This document shows positions 8,216-59,968 of a stretch of 64,000 bases of DNA, in pieces. The number at the start of each line of letters is the position of its first letter. Position 1 is the stretch's first letter. This DNA comes from an uncultured Microbacterium sp. (lineage in GTDB: Bacteria > Actinomycetota > Actinomycetes > Actinomycetales > Microbacteriaceae). The stretch is taken from NCBI RefSeq assembly GCF_913774845.1, contig NZ_CAJYJO010000055.1. The stretch is one strand, 5' to 3'. The position numbers were made by a program, and so were the translations under genes. The notes under the pieces were generated by a model. It made no database searches and was not told the DNA's origin. It saw only the letters and a program-made list of their open reading frames with translations.

Positions 8216-10264
8216 TCAGCCCGCGAGCCCGCGACGCTCCAGCAACGGCTCGATCTCGGCATCCCGGCCCCGGAAGTCGCGGTAGGCGGCGAGAGGGTCG
8301 CCGGAACCGCCGACACCGAGGAGGCGCTGGCGGAATCGATCGCCGTTCTCGCGCGTGAGGCCGCCGTTCTCACGGAACCACTCCACGGTGTCGGCGTCGA
8401 GCACCTCGCTCCAGATGTAGGAGTAGTACCCGGCGCTGTAGCCGCCCGAGAATACGTGCGCGAAGTACGTCGACGCATAGCGGGTGGGGACCGCGGGGTT
8501 GTCGAGTCCGATGTCGGCCAGGGCCGACGCCTCGAAGGCCTCGACGTCGATGTCGGCCGCCGCCTCTTCCGTGGAGAGACCGTGCCACGCCTGGTCGATC
8601 CAGGATGCCGCGAGGTACTCGCTCGTGGCGAAGCCCTGGTTGAACGCCTCGGACGCGTGCAGCCGCTCGACGACGTCGGACGGCAGCGGCTCACCGGTGT
8701 CGATGTGACGGGCGTAGTGCGAGAGGATCTCGGGCCAGAGGATCCACATCTCGTTCACTTGGCTCGGGAACTCCACGAAGTCGCGGTACACCGCGGTGCC
8801 GGCGAAGTGCGGGTACGTCACGGTGGCGAACAGGCCGTGCAGGCCGTGCCCGAACTCGTGGAAGAGGGTCGTGACCTCGTCCAGCGTCAACAGCGTCGGG
8901 GTTCCCGGGGCGGGCTTGTTCACGTTGAGGTTGTTGACCACGACGGGTGCGGTGCCGCGCAGCGCCGACTGGGTCACGATCGAATTCATCCACGCGCCGC
9001 CGCGTTTCGTGTCGCGCGTATACAGGTCGAGCAGGAACAGCCCGAGCTCGCTGCCGTCGGCGTTGTGCACCTCGAACACGCGAACGTCGGGGTGATAGCC
9101 CTGCAGGTCGTGCCTCTCGGTGACCCGGATGCCGTACAACTGCTCGGCCGCGAAGAACACGCCGTCGCGCAGCACTCGCTCCGCCTCGAACCACGGGCGC
9201 AGCGCGGCACGGTCGAGGTCGTAGCGCTCGGAGCGGACCTTCTCGGTGTAGAACGCCCAGTCGTGGGCCTCGATCCGGATGCCGTCGGCGTCGGCGATCC
9301 GCTGCAGGGCGGCCTGCTCGTCGTGGGCGTTCCGGGCGGCCGGTGCGGCCAGTCGACGAAGGAGCGACTCGACGGCGTCGGGTGAGCCGGCGGTCTGGTC
9401 GGCGAGCACGGCCGCGGCGTGCGAGGGGTAGCCGAGGAGCGTTGCTCGCTCGGCGCGCAGCCGGACGATCTCGCGCAGCACCGGACGGTTGTCGTTCGCG
9501 TTGTCGCGCGCCGCTCGCGAGCGCGACGCCTCGAGCAGCCGTCGGCGGCTCTCGCGGTTCGTCAGCGACGAGAGGTACGGGTGCCCGGTGTACAGCGTGA
9601 GAGTCACGACGTACCGACCGTCGAGCCCGCGGCTGGTCGCAGCCTGCGCGGCGGCCGAGAGCTCGCCGTCGCTGAGCCCGTCCAGCTCGGCGGCATCGTC
9701 GAATACCACGGCGAGGTCGTTCGTGTCGGCGAGCAGGTTCTTCTCGAACGTGGTCGTCAGCACCGACAACCCCTGATTGAGGTCGGTCAGACGCTGCTTC
9801 TGCGCGGCATCCAGACCGGCGCCCGCCAGCGCCATCTCGCGGTGGTGACGTTCCACGAGGTAGCGGCTCTCGGCATCCAGGTCCAGATCGTCCAGCTGGG
9901 CGTGCACCGCGGCGACGCGGGCGAACAGAGCGGTATCGAGCTGGATCGCGTCGCGGTGGGCGGACATCAGGGGCGCGAGCTGCTCCTCGATGGCCTGGAT
10001 CTCGGGGGTGCCGTCGGCACCCGTCACCGTGTAGAACGTGCGCGACACGCGACCGAGGAGCTCTCCGCTGCGCTCGAGGGCGACGAGGGTGTTCTCGAAC
10101 GTGGCGGGCTCGGTCTGAGCGGTGATCGCGTCGACCTCCGTCCGCTGAGCGGCGAACGCCTCGTGGAAGGCGGGGAGGTAGTGCGCCGAACGAATGCTGC
10201 CATACGGCGGCAGATCGTAAGGAAGCGCGGGGGAGGACAGCAGGGGATTGGGGGCATCCGTCAT
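8216..10264 (-). CDS. dcp: M3 family metallopeptidase (peptidyl-dipeptidase Dcp-like)
   Basis: HEFGH zinc motif, RDFVEFPSQ and GGYSAGYYSY. Confidence 0.92.
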   Translation of the reverse strand: MTDAPNPLLSSPALPYDLPPYGSIRSAHYLPAFHEAFAAQRTEVDAITAQTEPATFENTLVALERSGELLGRVSRTFYTVTGADGTPEIQAIEEQLAPLMSAHRDAIQLDTALFARVAAVHAQLDDLDLDAESRYLVERHHREMALAGAGLDAAQKQRLTDLNQGLSVLTTTFEKNLLADTNDLAVVFDDAAELDGLSDGELSAAAQAATSRGLDGRYVVTLTLYTGHPYLSSLTNRESRRRLLEASRSRAARDNANDNRPVLREIVRLRAERATLLGYPSHAAAVLADQTAGSPDAVESLLRRLAAPAARNAHDEQAALQRIADADGIRIEAHDWAFYTEKVRSERYDLDRAALRPWFEAERVLRDGVFFAAEQLYGIRVTERHDLQGYHPDVRVFEVHNADGSELGLFLLDLYTRDTKRGGAWMNSIVTQSALRGTAPVVVNNLNVNKPAPGTPTLLTLDEVTTLFHEFGHGLHGLFATVTYPHFAGTAVYRDFVEFPSQVNEMWILWPEILSHYARHIDTGEPLPSDVVERLHASEAFNQGFATSEYLAASWIDQAWHGLSTEEAAADIDVEAFEASALADIGLDNPAVPTRYASTYFAHVFSGGYSAGYYSYIWSEVLDADTVEWFRENGGLTRENGDRFRQRLLGVGGSGDPLAAYRDFRGRDAEIEPLLERRGLAG

Positions 10265-10335: not shown

Positions 10336-10450
10336 GGTCCCTGAGCTCGTCGAAGGCTCCGGTGGCTCAGACGGGCTCAGCCACCACGGCGAAGGGACGG
10401 GGACTTCGGCAAGCCCAGCCACCACGTCGAAGGGGCGGGGCCCAGCCACC
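10336..10450. repeat. Cluster of 25-nt palindromic repeat copies (REP-like)
   Basis: GGTCCCTGAGCTCGTCGAAGG (10336), GGTGGCTCAGACGGGCTCAGCCACC (10361) and two degenerate copies ending in CAGCCACC. Confidence 0.75.
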
Positions 10451-10522
10451 TCCGCGGGGCCCCGAGACGATCGAGCCCGCCGCCCCGAGCGGGGACGGCG
10501 GGCTCGTCGTTGGTGACGCGGC

Positions 10523-10771
10523 TCAGGCGAACTCGGCGTCGTCGTCGTAGCGCACGACGACCTCTCCGGCGGCGTCCTGGGTCACGATGACCCCGGTGTC
10601 GAGCTCCGCGACCGGACGCCCCTCGAGGAACGTCAGCGTCCATCGCGGGGCGGGTACGCTCAGCCCGTCGGGGTTGAGCGCCTCCTCGACCGCGGCGATC
10701 TGCGCGTGCAGCGCCTCGGGAACGGCCTTCGGCGGCTGCTCACGGGCGGTCCAACGGGTTCCGAGCTGCAT
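10523..10771 (-). CDS. Small hypothetical protein coupled to valS
   Basis: 82-aa ORF MQLGTRWTAREQPPK..., ATG overlapping the valS stop (TGATG). Confidence 0.7.
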   Translation of the reverse strand: MQLGTRWTAREQPPKAVPEALHAQIAAVEEALNPDGLSVPAPRWTLTFLEGRPVAELDTGVIVTQDAAGEVVVRYDDDAEFA

Positions 10772-18679: not shown

Positions 18680-18866
18680 GGACACGCATCGATCCGGCCA
18701 TCACCGGGGAGCTCGCGGAAGAACAGGGTCCAGGCCCCCAGTAGAACCGCGCGGGGCAGGCCCGTCACAGCCGCAGTGAGAGCGGCACCGGCCCCTGAGT
18801 TCGTCGACGGGTCCCGTGCAATGCAGGGTGGTACCGCGGTCCGCATGGATCGTCCCGGCGAGAGAA
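18680..18866 (+). promoter_or_regulatory. Ile T-box riboswitch (actinobacterial translational type)
   Basis: Stem I sequence GATCCGGCCATCACCGGGGAGC with the ATC (Ile) specifier at 18700-18702; T-box GCAGGGTGGTACCGCG at about 18823-18838; directly upstream of ileS. Confidence 0.88.
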
Positions 18867-18885: not shown

Positions 18886-21800
18886 ATGACCTACCCACGC
18901 CCCTCATCCTTCGGCCCGGCCGCCGACGCGCAGAGCGCCGCCGTCGCGGCATCCGTCGTCCCGAGCCCTCGCTTCCCGTCGATCGAGAACGACACGCTCG
19001 CGTTCTGGAAGGACGACGACACCTTCCGCGCCTCCATCGCGAACCGCGAGGGCGCCGAGGAGTGGGTGTTCTACGACGGCCCGCCCTTCGCGAACGGCCT
19101 GCCGCACTACGGGCACCTCCTCACCGGGTACGCCAAGGACGTCTTCCCGCGCTTCCAGACGATGCGCGGCAAGAAGGTCGACCGCGTCTTCGGCTGGGAC
19201 ACGCACGGCCTTCCCGCCGAGCTCGAGGCGATGAAGCAGCTCGGCATCACCGAGAAGGACGAGATCGAGCGCATGGGCGTCGCGACCTTCAACGCGAAGG
19301 CCCGCGAGTCGGTGCTCGAGTACACGCGCGAGTGGCAGGACTACGTCACGCGCCAGGCCCGCTGGGTCGACTTCGAGCGCGGCTACAAGACGCTGGACAC
19401 GACGTACATGGAGAGCGTCCTGTGGGCGTTCAAGACGCTGCACGACAAGGGTCTCGCGTACGAGGGCTACCGCGTGCTGCCCTACTGCTGGCGTGACGAG
19501 ACGCCGCTGTCGACGCACGAGCTGCGCATGGACGACGACGTCTACAAGATGCGCCAGGACCCCTCGGTCACGGTCACCTTCCCGCTGGTGGGCGCCAAGG
19601 CCGAGTCGCTCGGCCTCACCGGCGTCCGCGCCCTGGCCTGGACGACGACGCCGTGGACCCTGCCGACGAACCTCGCGCTCGCGGTGGGTCCCGGCATCCG
19701 GTACGCGGTGGTCGAGGGCGGCCCGAACGGCGCGGCCGACGTGCACACGACCCCCGACGGCACGCCCGACGAGGCGTTCGAGGCCGTCGCGCACCGGTAC
19801 CTGCTGGCCGAGGACCTGCTTGCGAACTACGCCAAGGACCTCGGGTACGACAGCGCGGATGCCGCCCGCGCGGCCGTGCAGACGACGATCTCGGGCGCGG
19901 AGCTCGAGGGCGTCGCGTACGACCGGCTGTTCGACTATTACGCCGACGCCGACACGTGGGGAACCGAGAACGCGTGGAAGATCCTCGTCGACGACTACGT
20001 CACGGTCTCGGACGGCACCGGCATCGTGCACCAGGCCCCCGCGTACGGTGAAGACGACAAGCGCCTCGCGGATGCCGCGGGCCTTCCCACGATCATCTCG
20101 CTCGACGACGGCGGACGGTTCCTGTCAGCCGTGACCGACGTCGCGGGCGAGCTGTGGCTCGAGGCGAACCGTCCGCTGATCCGTCTGCTCAAGCAGGGCG
20201 GGCGTCTCTTGCGCGAGGCGTCGTACGAGCACTCGTACCCGCACTGCTGGCGCTGCCGGAACCCCCTCATCTACAAGGCCGTGTCGAGCTGGTTCGTGCG
20301 CGTGACCGACATCAAGGACGACCTGCTGGCGAACAACCAGCAGATCACCTGGGTGCCCGAGAACGTCAAGGAGGGCCAGTTCGGCAAGTGGCTCGAGGGC
20401 GCGCGTGACTGGTCGATCAGCCGCAACCGCTACTGGGGCTCGCCGATCCCGGTGTGGAAGAGCGACGACCCGAACTTCCCGCGCGTCGACGTGTACGGCT
20501 CGCTCGCCGAGATGGAGGCCGACTTCGGCCGCCTGCCGGTGAACGCCGACGGCGAGGTCGACCTGCACCGTCCCTACATCGACGGCCTCACGCGCCCGAA
20601 CCCCGACGACCCGACCGGGCAGTCGACGATGCGCCGCATCGAGGACGTCCTCGACGTGTGGTTCGACTCGGGCTCGATGCCGTTCGCGCAGGTGCACTAC
20701 CCCTTCGAGAACCACGAGTGGTTCGACGAGCACGCCCCCGCCGACTTCATCGTCGAGTACATCGGGCAGACGCGCGGCTGGTTCTACGTCATGCACGTGC
20801 TCTCGACCGCGCTGTTCGACCGCCCCGCCTACACGGGCGTGTCGTGCCACGGCATCGTGCTCGGCAACGACGGGCAGAAGATGTCGAAGTCGCTGCGCAA
20901 CTACCCCGACGTGCGCGAGGTGTTCGACCGCGACGGTTCGGATGCCATGCGGTGGTTCCTCATGTCGTCGAGCGTCCTGCGCGGTGGCAACCTCGTCGTG
21001 ACCGAGGAGGGCATCCGCTCGGGCGTCCGCGAGTTCCTGCTGCCGCTGTGGAACGCGTGGTACTTCTTCGCGACGTACGCGAACGCTTCAGCGCCGGTGG
21101 CTGAGTCCGTCGAAGCCTCCGGCCCCGGGCTCGAGGGGGTTTCGGTCCCTTCGACGGGCTCAGGGACCTCGGTCGCAGGCCCAGGGACCTCGGTCGGCGG
21201 GTATGAAGCTCAGTGGCGCACCGACTCCACCGACGTGCTCGACCGCTACATCCTCGCGCTCACCGGCGACCTCGTGCGCGATGTCGCTTCCGACCTCGAG
21301 GGCCTGGACTCGACGACCGCGGCCGAGCGTCTGCGCGACTTCGCCGAGGTGCTGACCAACTGGTACATCCGCCGCTCACGCGACCGCTTCTGGGTGGGCG
21401 TGACCGACGACCCGTCCAGCCGCCAGGCCTTCGACACGCTCTACACGGTGCTCGAGACGCTCACCCGCGTGGCCGCTCCGCTGCTGCCGCTGGTGACCGA
21501 GCGCGTATGGCAGGGGCTGACCGGCGGGCGGAGCGTCCACCTGACCGACTGGCCCGACGCCGCGGCGTTCCCCGCCGCCGAAGACATCCGCACCGCGATG
21601 GACACCGTGCGCGAGGTCTCGAGCGTCGCCAACGCCCTGCGCAAGCGCGAGGGCAAGCGTGTGCGCCTGCCGCTGCCGCGTCTGACGGTGGTGACCCCGG
21701 ATGCCGCGGGCCTGGCGCAGTTCGACGACATCCTGCGCGAGGAGCTCAACGTCAAGGCCGTCGAGCAGGTCGCCCTCGAAGACGGCACAGCGGGGGAGTA

Positions 21801-58108: not shown

Positions 58109-59968
58109 ATGTCACCGCGCGCCCTGAAGCCCCTCGAGCCGTCTGCCACTCCGCCGGAGCAGATCCGCAACTTCTGCATCATCGCCCACATCGACCACGG
58201 CAAGTCGACGCTGGCCGATCGCATGCTGCAGATCACCGGCGTCGTCAGCGATCGCGACATGCGCGCGCAGTACCTCGACCGCATGGACATCGAGCGAGAG
58301 CGCGGCATCACGATCAAGTCGCAGGCCGTGCGGATGCCGTGGTCCCTTCGACAGGCGCAGGGACCCGAGCAGACCTTCGCGCTCAACATGATCGACACCC
58401 CCGGCCACGTCGACTTCACCTACGAGGTCAGCCGCTCACTCGCCGCGTGCGAGGGCGCGATCCTCCTCGTCGACGCGGCGCAGGGCATCGAGGCCCAGAC
58501 GCTCGCCAACCTCTACCTGGCGCTCGAGAACGATCTGACCATCATCCCGGTGCTCAACAAGATCGATCTGCCCGCGGCCGACCCCGACAAGTACGCGGCC
58601 GAACTCGCCGGTCTCATCGGCGGCGACCCCGCCGACGTGCTGCGCGTCAGCGGCAAGACGGGCATGGGCGTCGAAGACCTGCTCGACCTGATCGTCGAGA
58701 AGATCCCCGCCCCGGTCGGAAGGGCCGACGCCCCCGCCCGCGCGATGATCTTCGACTCGGTCTACGACGCCTACCGCGGGGTCGTCACCTACGTCCGCAT
58801 GATCGACGGCTCGCTGCAGCCGCGCGAGCGCCTGCAGATGATGTCGACGGGCGCGACGCACGAGGCGCTCGAGATCGGCGTGTCGAGCCCCGAGCCCGTG
58901 CCCACCAAGGGGCTCGGCGTCGGCGAGGTCGGCTACCTCATCACGGGCGTGAAAGACGTGCGCCAGTCGAAGGTCGGCGACACGATCACGACGCACCGCA
59001 AGCCCGCCACCGACGCCCTTCCCGGCTACACCGACCCGAAGCCGATGGTCTTCTCGGGCATCTACCCGATCGACGGCAGCGACTACGCCGAGCTGCGCGA
59101 AGCGCTCGACAAGCTCAAGCTCTCCGACGCCTCGCTGCAGTACGAGCCCGAGACCTCCGTCGCCCTGGGCTTCGGCTTCCGCTGCGGCTTCCTCGGGCTC
59201 CTGCACCTCGAGATCATCACCGAGCGCCTCTCGCGCGAGTTCGGGCTCGACCTCATCACCACGGCGCCGTCGGTGACCTACGAGGTCACCACCGACACCG
59301 GCGACACCGTCTCGGTCACCAACCCCAGCGAGTACCCCGACGGGCGCGTCGCCTCGGTGTCGGAGCCGATCGTCAAGGTCGGCATCCTGCTGCCGAAGGA
59401 CTACGTGGGCACCGTCATGGAGCTCTGCCAGTCGCGCCGCGGCACCCTGCTGGGCATGGAGTACCTCAGCGAGGACCGCGTCGAGCTGCGCTACCACATG
59501 CCGCTCGGCGAGATCGTGTTCGACTTCTTCGACCACCTCAAGTCCCGCACGCAGGGCTACGCGAGCCTCGACTACGAACCCGCCGGGCAGCAGACCGCCG
59601 ACCTCGTCAAGGTCGACATCCTGCTGCAGGGCGACAAGGTCGACGCGTTCAGCTCGATCGTGCACCGCGAGAAGGCGTACGCCTACGGCACGCTGATGGC
59701 CGAGCGCCTGCGCAAGCTCATCCCGCGCCAGCAGTTCGAGGTTCCCATCCAGGCCGCGATCGGCGCGCGCATCATCGCGCGCGAGACCATCCGCGCCATC
59801 CGCAAAGACGTGCTCGCCAAGTGCTATGGCGGTGACATCACCCGCAAGCGCAAGCTCCTCGAGAAGCAGAAAGAGGGCAAAAAGCGCATGAAGATGGTGG
59901 GCCGCGTCGAGGTCCCGCAGGAGGCGTTCATCGCCGCCCTGTCCGGAGACGTCGAGACCAAGAAGTAA
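58109..59968 (+). CDS. lepA: Translation elongation factor 4 (LepA)
   Basis: [29 protein letters not shown] and [14 protein letters not shown]. Confidence 0.98.
58341..58365 (+). repeat. 25-nt palindrome in frame within lepA
   Basis: GGTCCCT-TCGACAGGCGC-AGGGACC encodes (W)SLRQAQGP. Confidence 0.8.

Follow-up and report, generated by a model that had tools for sequence, protein, structure and literature searches.

Dispersed hairpins of a Microbacterium genome and their association with a small single-domain GIY-YIG gene

The window, by which we mean the entire 64-kb stretch of Microbacterium DNA that was analysed, contains a cluster of hairpin-forming palindromes at positions 10336-10450, in a gap bordered on one side by the start of a dcp-like gene (8216-10264) and on the other by the end of a small valS-coupled ORF (10523-10771), both on the minus strand. 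Further copies are found upstream of ileS, within ileS and within lepA (Table 1). All of these sequences are present where the initial annotation had placed them, and the cluster stood up to inspection, but its composition had to be revised from four full or decayed copies to two recognisable copies, which abut head to head, and four decayed remnants. The array is missing from the matching intergenic region of one relative (G016), and a shorter decayed pair is found there in another (G439); for other intergenic arrays, too, G016 had none and G439 shorter ones. A degenerate 25-mer pattern with up to three mismatches matched the window eight times, compared to a mean of 0.12 matches in dinucleotide shuffles of the window, and none of 100 shuffles reached eight. 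The perfect Q-class copy at 10361-10385 was predicted to fold as DNA with -7.3 kcal/mol (z -3.1). No Rfam family was matched by the hairpins of the window or by the loci from other phyla described below. In the same gap, directly after the valS-coupled ORF, we also noticed a GC-rich inverted repeat (10472-10506; arms of 15 bp, loop of 5 nt), which looks like the terminator of the valS-coupled operon, outside the hairpin family.

Table 1. Hairpin copies in the window, in-frame inserts in coding sequences, and the GIY-YIG ORF. Positions without a contig name refer to the window.
Feature	Position	Strand	Description
P-class hairpin copy, partly decayed	10336-10360	minus	GGAGCCT / TCGACGAGCTC / AGGGACC on the minus strand; 5/7 stem pairs
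Q-class hairpin copy	10361-10385	plus	perfect 7-bp stem GGTGGCT/AGCCACC; core variant CAGACGGGCTC
Decayed continuation of the alternating array	10386-10450		38-nt unit repeated, 74% identity
P-class remnants	~10386-10399 and ~10424-10437	minus	in the decayed array
Q-class remnant	10400-10423	plus	in the decayed array
Right half of a Q-class hairpin	10438-10450		in the decayed array
Decayed single copy	18790-18814	minus	GGCCCCT GAGTTCGTCGA CGGGTCC on the plus strand; intergenic, upstream of ileS
Q-class copy with one stem mismatch	21096-21120	minus	left half of the in-frame ileS doublet
Perfect P-class copy	21144-21168	plus	right half of the ileS doublet
Perfect P-class copy	58341-58365	plus	core TCGACAGGCGC; inside lepA, read as SLRQAQGP
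ileS insert	21091-21195		+99 nt (33 codons); Q minus, 23 nt, P plus, duplicate of the 3' half; not in five relatives
lepA insert			net +15 nt; ten residues, at a site with five residues in 14/16 aligned relatives (mostly ATADG or ATDAG)
Insert in citrate-synthase-like gene	C20:35048-35115		+96 nt; doublet with complementary outer flanks
P-type ATPase inserts	C2:41507-43160		~+270 nt and +18 nt compared with relatives
In-frame insert in HemB-like gene	C50:26648
Other in-frame insert	C30:112096
Other in-frame insert	C22:11425-11554
Other in-frame insert	C38:18490-18660
GIY-YIG ORF, 119 aa	G000:C36:31695-32054	minus	PF01541, E 1.2e-12; outside the window, present once

The whole genome assembly (3.37 Mb, 70.5% GC, 55 contigs, 99.99% complete) contains ~199 copies of the hairpin in 74 clusters, in agreement with the initial description of a dispersed, non-autonomous, hairpin-forming element. 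The ileS gene of this genome shares 80.6% identity with a Microbacterium record. As long alternating arrays are located at contig ends (e.g. C55:179530-180064, and on C25, C29 and C34), where they break the short-read assembly, the value of ~199 is an underestimate of the copy number. Each copy consists of a 7-bp stem around the core TCGAC(A/G)(G/A)GCTC, and the extended consensus, CC / GGTCCCT / TCGACAGGCTC / AGGGACC / TCGG, makes the element slightly longer than 25 nt. The core had been correctly recognised as conserved, whereas the G allowed at its position 10 is essentially limited to the copy in lepA. Three compensated stem classes were identified, P (GGTCCCT), Q (GGTGGCT) and R (GGACCCT), with 55, 42 and 11 perfect-stem copies in the whole genome, respectively. 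In a set of copies picked solely for an exact core (386 hits), the triplets of the arms paired as TCC/TCC in 56, TGG/TGG in 46 and ACC/ACC in 12 cases, and the TCC/TGG cross did not occur; the mean number of Watson-Crick pairs in this set was 4.04, compared to 2.81 +/- 0.06 with shuffled arms. The compensatory variation that had been proposed for two stems is thus borne out, but there are three classes, and the main two correspond to the two ends of a larger unit. The stem class was not associated with the core variant (AGG, GGG or AAG), and the replication-strand bias of the hairpins was weak. A search with the hairpin family gave no match in a phage collection and a single match, a Microbacterium record, in a plasmid collection.

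The arrangement of neighbouring copies follows the logic of the BIMEs of E. coli: 68 of the 71 inverted neighbour pairs combine Q with P or R, and 52 of the 54 equally oriented pairs consist of copies of one class, with spacings and linkers of a few discrete types. A single hairpin folds weakly (-5.8 kcal/mol, z -1.4). The Q/P doublet is predicted to form one long hairpin (-36.5 kcal/mol, z -4.2), in which the 11-nt 'loops' of the two copies form base pairs with one another and the difference between P and Q leaves small G.G and C.C bubbles, so that 'conserved core' is the better name for this segment. Whenever a copy is partial, it is the 3' half (GCTC plus right arm plus ~10 nt), and such halves follow a full copy in tandem (~10 cases). 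In ileS, a duplicate of the 3' half of the P copy extends to ~21195. Of 12 orphan 5' halves none adjoins a full copy, and these look like chance matches.

Most copies (157 of ~199) are intergenic and enriched in convergent gaps and near stop codons. Of the 74 clusters, 25 are located between co-directional genes, 18 between convergent and 4 between divergent genes, 21 inside predicted coding sequences and 6 at contig ends. In the co-directional gaps, the clusters lie a median of 32 nt past the upstream stop codon and 108 nt ahead of the next start codon. Such a distribution would be expected if the hairpins were 3'-end elements serving the host, for example as transcript stabilisers, U-less terminators or sites for nucleoid or topology proteins, and if their link to a nuclease gene, which is described below, were secondary. 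However, purifying selection against hits in promoters would yield the same location bias, and the clusters show no bias of orientation with respect to transcription (28 same, 24 opposite). Furthermore, hairpins at orthologous sites are not conserved among close relatives, about 9 of the 21 clusters in coding sequences lie deep inside the genes, and the single hairpin is weak. A function of this kind is consequently an improbable explanation of the family.

The inserts in ileS, lepA, the citrate-synthase-like gene and the P-type ATPase gene are missing from close relatives and hence represent recent insertions; those in ileS and lepA, which are essential genes of translation, are lineage-specific. 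In the case of the ATPase, the 270-nt array is shorter in G009 and missing in G016. In the case of lepA, the relative G019 carries an independent decayed hairpin copy in the same loop of the protein, which is read in a different frame. Comparison with the relatives revealed no target duplication at the inserts, and some target bases had been replaced, which fits a single-strand or repair-templated route and speaks against DDE cut-and-paste transposition. Near the junction, strings like CGAC...GGC are present at the empty sites of all four genes (lepA, ileS, the ATPase gene and the citrate-synthase-like gene). They might point to homology-guided insertion, but such strings are common in coding DNA of 70% GC and four sites are too few for this conclusion. 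One of the genes with an insert contains a 21-nt in-frame minisatellite of hairpin 3' halves, which is read as PEPATEV repeats. A further in-frame copy was observed in another family of the Actinomycetes (locus L195, G306:C1:284760-284980), where the hairpin is read as SPSTGSGG just before an LSKRDGA motif; the host gene looks like a glutamyl-tRNA synthetase gene, which would be another aminoacyl-tRNA synthetase hit.

The initial annotation had compared the palindromes to REP elements, which are mobilised in trans by RAYT proteins. A classical REP/REPIN family with a Y1 HUH transposase of this type would account for the BIME/REPIN-like grammar and for insertions without target duplication. The Y1_Tnp domain was, however, found in none of the 41 genomes of the genus (its own and 40 others, complete repeat-rich ones included), with control genomes giving hits, and in none of five further repeat-rich Actinomycetes genomes (G349, G306, G032, G407, G013). 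In two genomes from other phyla that do possess Y1_Tnp genes, no hairpin was present within 1.5 kb of them, and the hairpins lack a GTAG tag. As a mechanism, the REP/RAYT analogy was therefore dropped, and we regard mobilisation by a RAYT protein as extremely unlikely. The IS110 DEDD transposase and the RVT_1 reverse transcriptase were not found in the genome, each of them being present in one repeat-rich genome only, and searches of the genome for the TnpB zinc ribbon and for multicopy IS were likewise negative. The HNH domain gave two hits. For Y2_Tnp no hit was obtained in the genome, but as the control search was positive in 0 of 14 control genomes, this result excludes nothing.

It had been stated that the window contains no cognate nuclease gene, which is correct, and proposed that genes repeatedly flanked by hairpin clusters be sought, with GIY-YIG nucleases named as one option. 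Among the gene-caller predictions, a first screen for genes flanked by hairpins yielded only a sugar isomerase-like gene, and the genes located between inverted hairpins in G008, G009 and G306 were ordinary housekeeping or membrane genes. The GIY-YIG ORF on contig C36 (Table 1), which had been missed by the caller, emerged as the likely partner gene. It is one of two hits of a GIY-YIG scan of the genome; the other is a 648-aa open frame that we take to be UvrC. The ORF on C36 contains PF01541 as its sole domain (residues 1-76) and all residues that are invariant in an alignment of 16 homologues from the genus, including both tyrosines of the motif. It is placed between a five-copy Q array, which overlaps its 3' end, and a P array of five to six copies, which starts 68 nt upstream of its ATG. 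By sequence, the closest solved structures are UPF0213 BH0048 (PDB 1ZG2, E 6.5e-21) and EF2693 (1YWL, E 1.2e-16), both structural-genomics entries without assigned function. SLX1 gave a marginal match (0.008); this protein has an additional zinc-finger domain and acts on branched DNA, whereas the C36 protein consists of a single domain.

Within the genus (41 genomes), close homologues of the C36 gene (58-68% identity) are present only in the six genomes with most hairpins, which contain 135, 133, 106, 102, 71 and 64 copies. All six are flanked on both sides: the upstream hairpins are antisense, the downstream ones sense, and the two flanks usually differ in stem class. The gene thus occurs in 6 of the 8 genomes with at least 48 copies and in none of the 33 genomes with at most 20 copies (Fisher p = 6e-6, with kin counted as independent). 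No close homologue was found in G009 (57 copies) and G442 (48 copies), in which the gene may have been lost, or may have remained unassembled owing to flanking arrays. Two further repeat-containing genomes, G306 (54 copies) and G032 (42 copies), also have no gene. Distant homologues of the genus (41-56% identity) have no hairpin within 1.5 kb. The genes flanking the nuclease unit differ between species, which shows that the unit has moved.

The core and its closing pair occur in a hairpin context with many other stems in other families of the Actinomycetes, in Chloroflexota and Eremiobacterota, in Sphingomonadales, Devosia and Rhodocyclaceae, and in other groups. In 831 kb of loci from other lineages we counted 84 extra core matches, compared to 13 with the reversed control, and at least four contiguous stem pairs were present in 48 of the 84 core matches but in none of the 13 controls. 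Homologues of the GIY-YIG gene were examined in 20 other genomes. Of the 14 best homologues, ten had core hairpins within ~200 nt, eight on both sides and two on one side, and seven of the eight showed the canonical polarity, with antisense hairpins 37-175 nt upstream and sense hairpins 19-74 nt downstream. Of the ten flanked homologues, three are from Actinomycetes and seven from genomes outside the class, to which loci of Chloroflexota, Alphaproteobacteria, Rhodocyclaceae and Eremiobacterota had led. Core hairpins accompanied none of the 16 weaker homologues. The downstream hairpin is usually translated as part of the C-terminus of the ORF, giving PSTGSG or PSTSSG. For the 80 best metagenomic homologues, the exact core was present on both sides in only 7 of 70. 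In about 37 of 64, however, the two flanks matched each other exactly in inverted orientation over at least 13 nt, with variant cores. Most of the homologues from soil metagenomes (L260-L339) are bracketed by other inverted repeats (CATCCTGAGGAGCG... and ...CGTCTCGAAGGATG). These presumably resemble the long-loop palindromes that give rise to LLRMR and SFET-type junk peptides in Alphaproteobacteria.

Small GIY-YIG proteins with repeats of their own have already been described as the Ssn family (Chenal et al. 2025, Nat Commun, PMC11893778). These are single-domain proteins of ~94 aa that cut single-stranded DNA, on one strand only, beside cognate hairpin repeats (NTS/dRS3, generalised as 'SRM'). 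Their gene is flanked on both sides by the repeats, of which hundreds of copies are present in gene-carrying genomes; the SsnA clade corresponds to CDD cd10448, and the authors explicitly compared Ssn with IS and RAYT/REP systems (PMC11893778). In our set, seven genomes from other phyla hold both kinds of gene, weaker GIY-YIG homologues with NTS-like CGTCATTCCCGCG...GGGAATCCAG repeats and top homologues with core hairpins, so that two parallel nuclease-repeat systems exist in one cell (genomes G454-G468). The Ssn-type genes with NTS-like flanks (CGTCATTCCCGCGAAGGCGGGAATCCAG) are located at L241, L249, L251, L252, L256, L242 and L257. In a maximum-likelihood tree, in which the SsnA side was represented by homologues flanked by NTS-like repeats, these were separated from the core-hairpin clade, including the C36 protein, with 100/100 support.

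Based on these results, a small Ssn-type nuclease with a single GIY-YIG domain probably has the hairpins as its cognate repeats; we infer its activity, specificity and role in spreading the repeats from its likeness to the characterised proteins. A full unit would comprise one or more antisense P hairpins, a spacer of ~40-70 nt, an ORF of ~100 aa with a GIY-YIG domain, and one or more sense Q hairpins overlapping the 3' end of the ORF. The location of P upstream and Q downstream of the gene explains why the two classes always pair in inverted orientation. As the dispersed Q/P doublets have the same polarity and end classes without the gene, they look like non-autonomous derivatives comparable to MITEs or REPINs. 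Decay or slippage would have produced the single copies and the 3'-half copies, and arrays may grow via tandem duplication. By analogy with Ssn, the nuclease would be predicted to recognise the hairpin in single-stranded DNA, and only on one of the strands, and to cleave nearby. To our knowledge, no strand-transfer chemistry is known for GIY-YIG hydrolases, which counts against the nuclease itself copying the hairpins.

The direction of the association could also be reversed, with the gene homing into pre-existing hairpin doublets. In that case slippage, gene conversion or a host function, for instance, would suffice for the hairpins to spread or persist, and the GIY-YIG gene would be a selfish, homing-type element that lands in doublets, as IS110-family elements land in REPs. 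The gene is indeed located exactly at the linker position of a doublet, it moves, as judged from its variable neighbourhood, and G009, G442, G306 and G032 maintain 42-57 copies without it. Conversely, a selfish gene with hundreds of doublets as landing sites would not be expected to stay single-copy, to occur in all six of the richest genomes and in none of the 33 poorest, or to have its 3' end fused to the downstream hairpin in distant phyla, and characterised relatives bind and cut the repeats that flank them (PMC11893778). We consider this reversal unlikely and prefer the interpretation of the hairpins as cognate repeats of the nuclease.

A more far-reaching version of the nuclease interpretation, which we put forward only tentatively and regard as doubtful, is that the protein belongs to an unrecognised sister family of Ssn with its own cross-phylum hairpin (core TCGACRGGCTC), that the ~450-bp hairpin-gene-hairpin unit is an autonomous mobile element driven by a hydrolytic GIY-YIG nuclease, that the gene-less doublets are its MITEs, and that ORFs of essential genes are actively colonised in frame. 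If true, an autonomous element of ~450 bp would imply a mechanism of transposition or templated repair not yet described for bacteria. With its two ends and its doublets, the unit allows a direct test of how a plain nuclease might multiply its repeats, in a genus that is non-pathogenic and grown in the laboratory.

With the C36 gene, a candidate enzyme can be assigned to a hairpin family that repeatedly leaves translated traces (VPEPVEG, LRQAQGP, PSTGSGT and the like) in predicted proteins, both here and at the related loci examined. If the enzyme behaves like Ssn, it would have a new cutting specificity for single-stranded DNA and might be of use as a tool. The in-frame inserts in IleRS, LepA, the HemB-like protein, citrate synthase and the P-type ATPase are natural experiments in the tolerance of proteins to insertions. 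In addition, the arrays of hairpins break assemblies and mislead gene callers.

In-frame insertion of palindromes is known from the Rickettsia palindromic elements, which are found in conserved and essential genes and add short peptides at variable loops. The inserts in ileS, lepA, the citrate-synthase-like gene and the ATPase gene resemble these elements in their location within protein-coding genes, but the sequences are unrelated, the host belongs to another phylum, and a candidate enzyme could be identified here. Di Nocera et al. (2013) equated RPE-4 and RPE-6 with the CGTC REPs (PMC3733652), which correspond to the NTS-type family and not to the Microbacterium hairpins. CGTC REPs have a CGTC tag, a stem of 8-9 bp starting with AT, a loop of 4-5 nt and a CCA tail; no associated transposase was found for them, and an actinobacterial family was not described (PMC3733652). 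Like the Microbacterium hairpins they are dispersed palindromes that mostly form head-to-head dimers, but the stem here has 7 bp and starts with GG, the centre comprises 11 nt and the tail is TCGG.

With the REP/BIME/REPIN-RAYT systems, the hairpins share the properties of short GC-rich palindromes that are present in more than 100 copies and located at the 3' ends of genes (PMC3116915, PMC2817692, PMC3337134). Two classes alternate in orientation, like the Y and Z REPs in BIMEs, inverted doublets fold into a single long, imperfect hairpin, the repeats flank an enzyme gene that is present once, and target duplications are absent. The differences concern the enzyme, which is predicted to be a GIY-YIG hydrolase instead of an HUH Y1 transposase, the flanks, which have the consensus CC/hairpin/TCGG and lack the GTAG tag, and the conserved part, which is the centre of the hairpin here but the stem and tag in REPs. 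Moreover, the core of the Microbacterium hairpins is common to several phyla.

The closest correspondence is with Ssn, so that the principle of a nuclease with hairpin repeats is not new (PMC11893778). In the literature library searched, no paper gave the core sequence or tied the C36 clade to repeats, and searches with the DNA string and the peptide string were likewise negative. In both systems, a single-domain GIY-YIG protein of ~90-120 aa is encoded by a gene with inverted hairpin repeats of its own on either side, genomes with the gene contain dispersed copies in the hundreds, the distribution across phyla is patchy, and protein and repeat appear to co-vary. They differ in that the C36 protein belongs to a sister clade of the homologues with NTS-like flanks, in that the repeat has a 7-bp stem and an 11-nt core, compared to a stem of 8 bp, a loop of 4 nt and a CGTC tag in NTS, and in that the stem class differs between the two ends of the unit. 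Roughly one in four clusters is located in coding sequence, compared to 2% for NTS in N. meningitidis (PMC11893778), and the host is a high-GC Gram-positive bacterium in which the nuclease activity is predicted. None of the 36 hits of the published SRM pattern HGTCWY...RNCYNB in the genome overlaps a hairpin copy, and the pattern has no hits in the 80 metagenomic loci of the clade; the published search thus misses whole nuclease/repeat pairs. Compared to Ssn, the novelty lies in a distinct motif that accompanies a sister clade of nucleases, in a host from the high-GC Gram-positive bacteria, and in the unusual frequency of in-frame insertion into genes; the Ssn principle is thereby extended to another clade of nucleases, another motif and this group of hosts.
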